DNA from: Nitrospinales bacterium
GTDB lineage: Bacteria; Nitrospinota; Nitrospinia; Nitrospinales; VA-1
NCBI GenBank assembly: GCA_022450865.1
Contig: JAKUOQ010000004.1
Location: 1-58,592, forward strand
Direction of reading: 5' to 3'
Length of the DNA: 58,592 nucleotides
Positions 22,411 to 25,620 of this stretch are shown here, piece after piece (the first letter of the stretch is position 1; the number at the start of each line of letters is the position of its first letter). The notes below the pieces were generated by a model. That model saw only the letters and a list, made by a program, of their open reading frames with translations. It did no database searches and was not told the DNA's origin. The position numbers and the translations under genes are program-made.

Positions 22411-22485
22411 TGGCTCCGGTGAGAGGACTCGAACCTCTAACACATCGGTTAACAGCCGATTGCGCTACCATTGCGCCACACCGGA
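22411..22485 (-). tRNA. tRNA-Asn (GTT), CCA encoded
   Basis: Acceptor stem TCCGGTG/CACCGGA, anticodon arm ATCGG-CTGTTAA-CCGAT, T arm AGAGG-TTCGAGT-CCTCT, GCCA end. Confidence 0.97.
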
Positions 22486-22521
22486 ATGGTTTTATGAGAA
22501 TTTTCGATTTTAAAGGTTTGA

Positions 22522-22550
22522 AAATTAAACTTGTTTTACCATATTGTCAA
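22522..22550 (-). promoter_or_regulatory. Probable tRNA promoter
   Basis: TTGACA-17 nt-TAATTT. Confidence 0.55.
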
Positions 22551-22666
22551 GCGGAATTGTACCCCCTAAAAAGGGATTGATTGCTTTTACGCTAAGGGTT
22601 TTGGTCTATTTACGCATTCGGAGCATGAAAGGCGAGGAAGAATATTATTTGATCCATACCCAGTGG

Positions 22667-23266
22667 TTAGCCCATTTCCATACGTCCTTCGAGGGATTTC
22701 AGCAGGGTGACGGAATCGGCGTATTCGATATCGGATCCTACCGGCAAGCCCCTAGCGATGCGTGTAACTTTTACATTTAGTGGTTTAAGAAATTTTGAAA
22801 TATAAACGGCGGTAGACTCACCTTCCATATCTGGATTGGTAGCAAGAATCACTTCTCGAACATTTTTGCTAGCAACTTTCTTTTTTAAAAGTTCAATATT
22901 CAAATCGTCTGGGCCAATTCCATCCAACGGAGAAATGACCCCCATTAAGACATGATACACGCCTTTGTAATAGCCCATATTTTCCATAACGTAAACGTCA
23001 TGAGGTTCTTCTACGACACAAATCTGTTTTTGGTCTCTGGAGCTATTAGAACAAATTCCACAAGGATCAGTTTCGGTTATTCCGTGACAAACAGAACAGA
23101 GGATAATTTTATCTTTTATATTTTGAATTGCATTTGCAAGTTTGGTGGCTTGATCCACTTTACTGCGCATCAAAAAGAACGACAAACGCTCAGCAGTCTT
23201 TTGTCCAACCCCTGGGAGCCTTTTCAATTCTTCTATAAGTTCTGTTACCGCCGTTGGTCTTTTCAT
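22667..23266 (-). CDS. recR: Recombination mediator RecR
   Basis: LPGVGQKTAER HhH, C4 zinc finger, Toprim YHVLMG and ATNP. Confidence 0.97.
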   Translation of the reverse strand: MKRPTAVTELIEELKRLPGVGQKTAERLSFFLMRSKVDQATKLANAIQNIKDKIILCSVCHGITETDPCGICSNSSRDQKQICVVEEPHDVYVMENMGYYKGVYHVLMGVISPLDGIGPDDLNIELLKKKVASKNVREVILATNPDMEGESTAVYISKFLKPLNVKVTRIARGLPVGSDIEYADSVTLLKSLEGRMEMG

Positions 23267-23489
23267 AGGGTGGCGCTAAATTATATAGCAATATCTTTTT
23301 TAATTAGCATCTGTTCTACAGGGATTGATAAATTGTTTTTCCATTTTCTCTAATGTTCTGGGCATATGCGTCGCTAGGGATATCCGAATCCCAATGAAGT
23401 TCGTAAAGACCCTCCATGCCTTTAAATTTAATTCACAGTATATTTAAATGTATTGAAAAAAATTTTAGAAATTTGCGAAGTTACATTTC

Positions 23490-23816
23490 TTAAGTCGGGG
23501 GGAATAAGCCGGGAATTTTTATGCCCCCGGTCACTTTTGTCATTTCACCCTGAGCCAATTGTTTAACCTCCTTGCTGGCTTCGTTGACGGCACCCGTAAT
23601 CAAATCTTCGAGAACTTCTCGGTCTTTCATGTTAATCAGTTCATCATCAATTTTAATGGATATGATCTCATTGAGTCCATTTGCCACAACTTTTACCATA
23701 CCGCCACCGGTGCTTACTTCAATTGTCTTTTCAGCTAAGCCTTCTTGAATTTCAGCAAGTTTAGATTGCATTTCTGATGCTTGTTTGAATAACCCTGTCC
23801 AACCTTTATCAAACAT
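23490..23816 (-). CDS. ybaB: YbaB/EbfC nucleoid-associated protein
   Basis: GGGMVKV, LEDLI..AVNEA; lies between dnaX and recR; start MFDKG. Confidence 0.92.
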   Translation of the reverse strand: MFDKGWTGLFKQASEMQSKLAEIQEGLAEKTIEVSTGGGMVKVVANGLNEIISIKIDDELINMKDREVLEDLITGAVNEASKEVKQLAQGEMTKVTGGIKIPGLFPPT

Positions 23817-23865
23817 GATATTTATAAATGCCCAAGAACATTTTCCTCCTTTTTCGTAATAACTA

Positions 23866-25458
23866 TCATTTGACCACAATGCCTCCAAAAATGTCCAGAG
23901 CGTCTTGAATAATTTCCGATTCAGATTTCTGTTTTCCAGTTTCAGGGGCTATGAACTTTTTTTTTTCTTCATTAGTAGATTGAATAGGAGACTCCTGAAT
24001 AGACGTGTCGAGGATTAATTTTATATTCACGTCATCACCACAAACTGTCTTTATGGTTTCTTTCAGGAACTGAATATTTTCGGGCGCCTCTACTAAATCA
24101 AAAGTAAAGTTATCAGAAAATGCCAGTTGAATTTCCTTATCGCTAAAAACCGGTACCTGACATTTTTCAAGATAATGCTCAAAAAATGGTTTTGTACTTG
24201 CAACCTGTTGCTTGATTTGATCCCATAAAACCTGAGTATTCTGATTGCCCGTTACTGAAACAGTAGGGCTTTCTTTAGAGTTTTTTTTTCTTGAAAAGTG
24301 TTGAACCGGCTCGATATTATCGTTTTCAGCCTGGTTGATCTTTTCTATGAGTTCATCGATTTTTTTAAAGGGTCGTGTTTCTATCAATCGCAATAAAGCC
24401 ATTTCAAAAACCATTTGCGATAGGGAACTTTTTTTCATTTCCATTTCGGCTTTTGATAGAACCGAAAACATAACCTGCAACTCATCGGCGTGAAAATATT
24501 CTGCCTGTTTTTTTAAGGTTTCTAAACTACAGGTATGGGTATTAATCAAAGTTTCAGGCTGATTTGAAAATTTCACTATCAAAAGATTTCTTAAATACTC
24601 CATAAGGCTGCGACAAAATAACCCAAGATCTTTTCCCTGTTTTACTATTTCCTGTATTAATGTAACCAGAACTGCTGGCTGTCGATCAATTAACCGGTCA
24701 ATAAAAGTTTCAAGAGTATTTCCGCCGACAATGCCCAACACCGCTTCAACGGATTCAGCATCTACTTTTCGACCGCTGTAGGCAATTACCTGATCTAACA
24801 AGCTCTGCGCATCGCGCATACTGCCCGCCCCAATTTTTGAAATATCTTCCAGGCCTCTTTTTTCGATATCAATTTTTTCCTGTTTGCAGATCAATTCCAG
24901 TTGCTGAGTGATTTGGGACTGCGACAAGGGTTTGAACTCAAAACATTGACAGCGGGAAAGAATGGTTTCGGGAATTTTTATTAGCTCTGTTGTAGCAAAA
25001 ATAAAAATTACCCGTGGCGGAGGTTCTTCAAGTGTTTTTAACAATGCATTAAAAGCACTTTTAGAAAGCATATGGACTTCATCAATGATGTAAACCTTGT
25101 ACCGAGCTGCTGAGGTGGCATATTGTACGTTATCTATCAAGTCGCGAACTTCCTGAACCCCATTGTTGGAAGCACCATCTATTTCCTGGACATCAATGCA
25201 ATTTCCTTCAGTTATTTCAGTGCAAAAGGTACAAAGACCACAAGGGTCAACGATAGGACCCTTTTCACAATTGAGGACACGGGCAAGAATTCGTGCGGTT
25301 GTTGTCTTACCCACACCACGAGTACCAGAAAATAAAAAAGCGTGCGAAATACGCTCCAGCTCTATTGCGTTTGAAAGGGTGCGGACAATATGCTCTTGTC
25401 CAATCAACTCACTAAATTTCTGAGGGCGCCATTTCCGGGCTGAAACCTGGAAGTCCAT
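23866..25458 (-). CDS. dnaX: DNA polymerase III subunit tau/gamma
   Basis: ARKWRPQ, GTRGVGKTT, DEVHML, LEEPP, SRC. Confidence 0.97.
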   Translation of the reverse strand: MDFQVSARKWRPQKFSELIGQEHIVRTLSNAIELERISHAFLFSGTRGVGKTTTARILARVLNCEKGPIVDPCGLCTFCTEITEGNCIDVQEIDGASNNGVQEVRDLIDNVQYATSAARYKVYIIDEVHMLSKSAFNALLKTLEEPPPRVIFIFATTELIKIPETILSRCQCFEFKPLSQSQITQQLELICKQEKIDIEKRGLEDISKIGAGSMRDAQSLLDQVIAYSGRKVDAESVEAVLGIVGGNTLETFIDRLIDRQPAVLVTLIQEIVKQGKDLGLFCRSLMEYLRNLLIVKFSNQPETLINTHTCSLETLKKQAEYFHADELQVMFSVLSKAEMEMKKSSLSQMVFEMALLRLIETRPFKKIDELIEKINQAENDNIEPVQHFSRKKNSKESPTVSVTGNQNTQVLWDQIKQQVASTKPFFEHYLEKCQVPVFSDKEIQLAFSDNFTFDLVEAPENIQFLKETIKTVCGDDVNIKLILDTSIQESPIQSTNEEKKKFIAPETGKQKSESEIIQDALDIFGGIVVK

Positions 25459-25486: not shown

Positions 25487-25620
25487 GGGAACTAAAGGTA
25501 GAATTGTTGGGGATCTCACAGCACATATGGGATTTTGTTACCGCTGCTTCCTTCCGGACCTGACGGGTTTCACAAAGCCATGTTGCGTGAGGCCCAACAA
25601 AACTACCAAAATAACTTCCC
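25487..25620 (-). ncRNA. ffs: Signal recognition particle RNA
   Basis: Helix-8 core GTCAGGTCCGGAAGGAAGCAGC (25543-25564) inside a long hairpin closing GGGAA/TTCCC; canonical position upstream of dnaX. Confidence 0.93.

Follow-up and report, generated by a model that had tools for sequence, protein, structure and literature searches.

The dnaX gene of this Nitrospinales bacterium, carried on the 58,592-nucleotide stretch of DNA analysed here (the window), contains a run of ten A's near its 3' end that is conserved at the DNA level and is probably a transcriptional slip site (23957-23966) giving a tailless DnaX of about 505 residues. RNA polymerase would slip at this conserved A10 run, adding an A, and on part of the mRNA translation would then end at a stop seven codons further on, producing a DnaX without its last 29 residues. 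In the predicted layout a clamp-loader core is followed by a first linker, a KH-like domain, a second linker and a helical tail; the lost tail would tether the Pol III alpha subunit, and the short form may serve as gamma and so restrict how many polymerases a clamp loader holds. The A10 run lies 94% of the way along the gene, with 32 codons left before the stop. An earlier, sequence-only reading had proposed programmed dnaX recoding at an upstream run of nine A's and did not mention this longer run in the same gene. Its proposal of recoding at poly-A in this lineage is well supported, but the conserved site is the A10 run, and the predicted product has about 505 residues rather than being a gamma of about 394. 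The gene, its sites and its neighbours are as follows.

25502-25599, minus strand: SRP RNA gene (ffs), immediately preceding dnaX in the same orientation.
23866-25458, minus strand: dnaX, a single ORF of 530 aa (tau, 59.9 kDa), assigned from the ORF, Pfam and the E. coli match.
24349-25458, minus strand: clamp-loader core, domains I-III, residues 1-370 (Pfam); runs of at least nine A's fall here in none of 72 complete orthologues.
24281-24289, minus strand: A9 run in linker 1, codons 390-393 (AGA AAA AAA AAC), private to the strain group.
24275-24277, minus strand: TAA reached with one A added at A9 (394 aa, 44.6 kDa, ending RKKKL).
24252-24254, minus strand: TAA reached with one A lost or two added at A9 (401/402 aa).
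24010-24243, minus strand: residues ~406-483, predicted to form a type II KH-like domain, which the A10 product would retain and the A9 product would lack.
23957-23966, minus strand: A10 run in predicted disordered linker 2, codons 498-501 (GAA AAA AAA AAG), containing A_AAA_AAG.
23949-23951, minus strand: TAG reached with one A lost or two added at A10 (502/503 aa).
23942-23944, minus strand: TGA reached with one A added (or a -1 ribosomal shift) at A10 (505 aa, ending EEKKKVHSP).
23869-23955, minus strand: conserved C-terminal tail, residues 502-530, with a predicted helix at 513-524; removed by a slip at A10.
23490-23888 and 22667-23266, minus strand: two ORFs downstream of dnaX that appear from their sequences to resemble YbaB/EbfC and RecR, respectively.
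22414-22485, minus strand: tRNA gene downstream of dnaX.

The protein matches Pfam families PF13177 (DNA_pol3_delta2), PF22608 (DNAX_ATPase_lid) and PF12169 (DNA_pol3_gamma3, residues 232-370), and residues 1-364 match E. coli gamma/tau with E=3e-87, so that an AAA+ clamp-loader core with domain III is present. Tau is encoded in one frame, in a single 530-aa ORF, and is not split over two. The segment downstream of dnaX (22414-23888) is the usual dnaX neighbourhood. RNA-library contig depth is far higher over the SRP RNA gene than over dnaX.

The region beyond the core was modelled from 86 orthologues; residues ~398-492 were also compared by fold, and a profile of the C-terminal 145 residues was run against PDB sequences. 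In the model, residues ~386-404 are disordered, ~406-483 form a folded alpha/beta domain (pLDDT 77-87), ~489-510 are again disordered and 513-524 form a helix of low confidence; the tau C-terminal domain has this arrangement, a type II KH-like fold with a tail after it. The predicted KH-like domain resembles DnaA domain I by profile (E 4e-7) and by fold (Z 11.2) and more weakly that portion of E. coli tau's domain V which is globular, residues 521-613 (Z 6.0, rmsd 3.9). DnaA domain I alone was matched in the profile search against PDB, with no tau chain among the matches. Pfam DnaX_C is found in 39 of the 86 members (best E 1.3e-7), and this protein falls below its cut-off. The tail carries the motif ExEIIQDALDIFGG, which is the alignment consensus. 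For E. coli tau, the stretch reported to bind alpha is the unstructured end of the chain beyond the KH-like fold (PMC1888804, PMC1888800), and removal of seven C-terminal residues is reported to weaken the KD for alpha from ~260 pM to 7 uM (PMC1888804); PMC3643586 links the final residues of B. subtilis tau to helicase/primase control. By analogy, residues 502-530 may bind Pol III alpha as a polymerase tether, in which case a slip at A10 would remove the tether and keep the rest, and a slip at A9 would remove the KH-like domain as well.

All 11 relatives within the genus keep A10 or A11 at this place, despite divergence of the flanking linker. Conservation within the genus is weak evidence by itself, because the protein alone yields a run in 61-77% of resamplings (Lys codons in the genus dnaX genes are 84% AAA), because several other conserved Lys columns are AAA in 25-26 of 26 genes (96-100%) beside 30 of 30 for the Lys codons of the run, and because kin are not independent. 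The evidential weight lies with GC-rich and distant lineages and with run positions that are not homologous.

In a survey of the phylum 120 genomes were searched, 100 gave a match and 104 loci were scored (90 full length; 73 in the order). Dropping L017, which has two homopolymer losses, gave an order set of 72 complete dnaX genes; also left out were L026 (42% identical, of a different lineage), L079 (an internal TAG; it has A9 at codon 393) and seven loci that end before the 3' end. L026 is the sole dnaX-like match in its same-genus bin (G016), which suggests a contaminating contig. The L017 gene appears frameshifted, with A8 and A5 where L018 has A9 and A6, and these losses are likely homopolymer errors of assembly. 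Six partial genes lie outside the 72, four with A10 at -32 codons and two, of genus g22, without a run.

A run of A9-A12 is present after codon 370 in 61 of the 72 genes and before codon 370 in none. Synonymous-codon resampling of the same 72 proteins predicts 22.7 genes with a run; 62 of the proteins yielded one at all in resampling, and 61 of these genes really have one. Of the 72 genes, 49 have the run in the last linker alone, 9 in the first alone and 3 (this genome, L090 and L094) in both; the 11 with neither include all six genus g22 genes in the set. Adding partial genes that retain the 3' end gives 68 runs, all 9-12 A's long because only such lengths were counted; measured from the gene end, 47 are at 30-35 codons, two at 24, two at 46 and five at 50-51, and 12 are in the first linker. 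Nine is the run length in 28 of the 68, and A8 near-misses are few. Outside the order, A9 at -32 is found in 2 of 4 genes of the nearest family, and the class's four remotest families show no run in any of 13 genes. Because run-less genes exist (11/72, including g22, and 13/13 in the distant families), the short form must be dispensable there or made otherwise; by analogy with Caulobacter, run-less lineages such as g22 could make it by proteolysis. Three g22 genes (L068, L076, L086) have A6 (xxT/C AAA AAA GCx) at codons 397-399, the linker-1 place of other families, possibly a decayed slip site.

The run is also found in dnaX genes with GC3 of 0.7-0.8. As controls, runs of at least nine A's occur in none of 30 longest ORFs at dnaE loci (one of these picks being an antisense ORF) and in 2 of 142 ORFs of the same retrieved loci, a set that includes dnaE parts. 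Five relatives have 48-136 A9 words per whole genome, which by arithmetic is ~1-4% per gene. On a tree of the core domains the first-linker run changes state at least six times and the last-linker run nine times. Within a tight clade of genus g19 (L053, L055, L057, L058, L061) two genes have the run in linker 1, one in linker 2 and two have none; L058 also lacks most of linker 2, and turnover in g19 is the fastest seen.

Long A runs are otherwise avoided in this genome, in which 75% of Lys codons are AAA. Among its 1242 long ORFs, sense A8 runs are not depleted (279 seen, 255 expected), whereas A9 runs are (45 seen, 92 expected), and runs of ten or more are strongly so (6 seen, 50 expected), the dnaX A10 being one of the six. 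This drop at nine A's matches the pattern described by Baranov 2005 (PMC1088944), where depletion of runs above a given length is taken as a sign of slippage-prone lengths and of selection against them. The five other ORFs with sense A10 or A11 runs are on contigs C71, C45, C205, C190 and C112 of this assembly (G000). The sole sense T10 among the 1242 ORFs (ATT TTT TTT TTA, codons ~167-170) lies in a second Pol III alpha homologue of 1008 aa with a shorter C-terminus, probably DnaE2 (L109:1048-4074, on G000:C181); of five relatives searched, one gave a match to that gene, with T8 in place of the T10. Contig ends interrupt the replicative dnaE (L110, G000:C181:45263-46522, and L111, C173), whose C-terminal 420 aa include a putative tau-binding domain.

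The A9 run flagged by the sequence-only reading is real. Nine A's lie at 24281-24289 within TCA AGA AAA AAA AAC TCT AAA, at codons 390-393 as proposed; the product with one added A does end in RKKKL before TAA, and that with one A fewer does end in RKKTLKKALLFQ before TAA (24252-24254). Stops are thus close in both shifted frames at both runs, at 394/401 aa for A9 and 505/502 aa for A10, and each is a run of at least nine A's after the core of a single tau ORF. Assembly error was considered as a source of A9 and is ruled out, since the run is intact in independent contigs of near-identical strains (sequencing runs X15 and X16); it is broken in the majority contig of run X17 (depth 22.1 of 34.3). 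The same reading had offered conservation in orthologues as a check and a run broken by synonymous AAG codons in relatives, together with no truncated product or RNA indels, as grounds for abandoning the idea, and here A9 fails: it is kept by none of the 11 genus relatives, in which the longest run at this place is only 3-6 A's. As a control, the window's three further coding A9 runs were compared with their orthologues, and the run was retained in 0 of 14 cases. At the A9 place the two nearest relatives have AGG AAA ACA GAT and GAA AAA ACA AAT, so by this comparison A9 would be one or two substitutions old. Forty-nine of the 1242 long ORFs carry a sense run of at least nine A's, or ~6% per gene of dnaX length; one A9 is therefore unremarkable, and alone does not much exceed chance. 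The simplest view of A9 is that it was gained recently, in a gene already tolerant of truncation. It may well slip, because a run of nine is the sole run in many relatives, because 11 other genes carry a linker-1 run and because runs of this length are depleted in the genome; it may thus leak some classical 394-aa gamma, though it is not the conserved signal of the lineage.

Assembled contigs from 8 of 24 listed sequencing runs were compared with dnaX. Two RNA-library contigs span A10 without a gap, and another, from run X4 (depth 6.7), carries T23962C, a synonymous AAG that breaks A10; among the listed RNA-library pieces none bridges A9. No indel is found among the listed contig differences from the eight runs, assembled contigs being of a kind that drops mixed variants. 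Such contigs cannot show a mixed mRNA population, and slippage itself is therefore something that we infer. Two RNA contigs of different studies end at 23946. We rejected this as a sign of slippage because the position adjoins a synonymous third position, stops 11 bases before the run is reached, and is not where an indel bubble would end.

The features of the 68 runs bear on whether polymerase or ribosome would slip. The residues encoded over the run vary (EKKK, QKKT, KKKT, VKKN, GKKN, DKKK, LKKN, SKKK), and the runs occur in all three codon phases (11, 44 and 13 in phases 0, 1 and 2). In the frame reached by one added A a stop follows within 9 codons in 67 of 68 runs, compared with 43% of control positions in the same gene regions; in the frame reached by one lost A this is so in 43 of 68 (control 35%), with stops up to 63 codons away. 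Since near stops are concentrated in the +1A frame, the selected outcome would be an added A or a -1 ribosomal shift. A ribosomal origin of the same product at the same site, by a -1 shift or sliding on A_AAA_AAG/A_AAA_AAA at codons 498-501, accordingly has to be weighed, and we judge it rather unlikely. The selected frame fits it equally, the A10 run ends in G and so gives the E. coli heptamer (in frame at codons 499-501 here) in all 12 genus genes covering the site, and the bare E. coli site is reported to shift at 14% in vitro without stimulators (bioRxiv 2025.10.02.679949). Across the order, in contrast, A_AAA_AAG is present in just 15 of 68 runs (A9 here contains A_AAA_AAC and lacks A_AAA_AAG), no hairpin is conserved, and Shine-Dalgarno-like words (GGAG/GAGG/AGGA) precede 7 of 68, with none 3-22 nt before either run here. 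The 60 nt after A10 fold with -6.8 kcal/mol (z +0.1), which is no stable stem-loop, and those after A9 with -12.9 kcal/mol (z -1.5). For the heptamer 6-7 A's would suffice, yet in all three phases the runs remain at 9-12, the lengths counted. Runs of at least nine A's without stimulators fit Thermus-type slippage better than ribosomal shifting as these are described in PMC3711429, PMC5009743 and PMC1088944. Both processes could act on the A10G sequence of this genus.

Three further accounts differ in what they take the run to be for. The A9 run might be a selected, working second site that makes the classical 394-aa gamma, with the gene caught midway as its site moves from linker 2 to linker 1. 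The 11 other complete order genes with a linker-1 run speak for this, nine of them having none in linker 2 and most resembling A9 here in being in phase 2 and in meeting a +1A stop after 5-9 codons, as do the repeated changes of the linker-1 run on the tree, the commonness of length nine and the presence of A9 in near-identical strains. We nevertheless hold it to be decidedly unlikely: the genus relatives lack A9, ~6% of genes this long carry such a run anyway, A10 is still intact, and the trade-off between linkers visible in the raw counts (49/9/3/11) comes down to four independent pairs with a median p=1. That there is no recoding at all, and that a short lysine patch needed by the protein together with AAA-biased codons produces the run, would agree with the codon bias of the genome and of the genus dnaX genes, with the resampling within the genus and with the RNA-library contig bearing a synonymous break. 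We consider this very unlikely, given the 61 runs seen against 22.7 expected, the seven GC-rich genes (L011, L018, L019, L020, L070, L071, L089) that have a run at a resampling chance of 0.01-0.1, the flanking non-Lys codons that extend the run, its non-homologous places, the clustering of stops in the +1A frame and the purging of long runs elsewhere in the genome. Action at the DNA level, with replication slippage giving phase variation of tau, is extremely improbable. It could claim the A8 and shifted frame of L017, but that gene has a second one-base loss in an A run 20 bases on, typical of homopolymer sequencing error, and the listed contig differences of the eight runs include no indel. 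Tau is, moreover, essential in the bacteria studied.

Transcriptional slippage at the A10 run would set this gene beside the Thermus-type dnaX genes, in which the short protein is made about 1:1 with tau. In T. thermophilus slippage takes place on an A9 run seven-eighths along a single ORF (Larsen et al. 2000, as cited in PMC1088944, PMC5009743 and PMC3711429). The present gene likewise has a single tau ORF with 9-10 A's late in the gene, stops close in both shifted frames and a short form that would arise by added A's. It differs from Thermus in the position of the run, 94% of the way along the gene, where a slip would take off just 29 residues and leave the tau-domain-V-like fold on the short form; across the order, the run may occupy the first or the second linker, and in the second it is found at four offsets (24, 30-35, 46 and 50-51 codons from the end). 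With E. coli it shares A_AAA_AAG, inside the genus A10, and a tau in frame 0 with the short form reached through the -1 frame; it lacks two of the three E. coli features, having neither an SD-like word nor a stable hairpin, and the heptamer is in only 15/68 runs. E. coli gamma (430 aa) is without domains IV-V entirely, whereas the product here would be without the tail only. Two-ORF ('reversed') poly-A dnaX genes are described by Antonov et al. 2013 (PMC3711429), 17 genes in 12 genera, nine of them with A10. As that account presents them, A10 is the usual length there too and transcriptional realignment is likewise deduced from conservation, but tau needs the slip, whereas here a single assembly, probably erroneous, is the exception to a tau encoded in frame. 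Caulobacter also has a C-terminally shortened DnaX from one gene; in the account of bioRxiv 2022.11.10.516041 its gamma arises by ClpXP partial proteolysis, a post-translational route unlike the one proposed here. A literature search, with subscription journals and supplements outside its scope, found no paper with both 'Nitrospina' and 'dnaX' and none on dnaX recoding in this group.

A wider conjecture is possible, although we would not call it likely. The Nitrospinales may have been selected to keep one slip site anywhere upstream of the last ~25 residues of DnaX, the site having jumped between linkers several times, and this strain, holding both, would make three subunits (530, ~505 and ~394 aa). 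The usual short form would then be a 'tailless tau' that keeps the DnaA-domain-I-like domain, possibly for helicase contact, without the polymerase tether.

The mechanism itself has been known since 2000; its placement near the gene end is unusual. Slip sites of dnaX in intact ORFs may be missed if only the classical gamma/tau boundary is examined. Why bacteria make gamma is still debated, and a 'tailless tau', if true, would show that the job of gamma is only to leave a polymerase seat empty. The predicted loss of a 29-residue tail alone, alongside sister lineages cut 140-180 residues earlier or not at all, would amount to a natural experiment on the part of tau that has to be missing. The marine nitrite oxidisers of the Nitrospina group are abundant, and the finding would add programmed recoding to these bacteria at a gene where annotation shows one protein.
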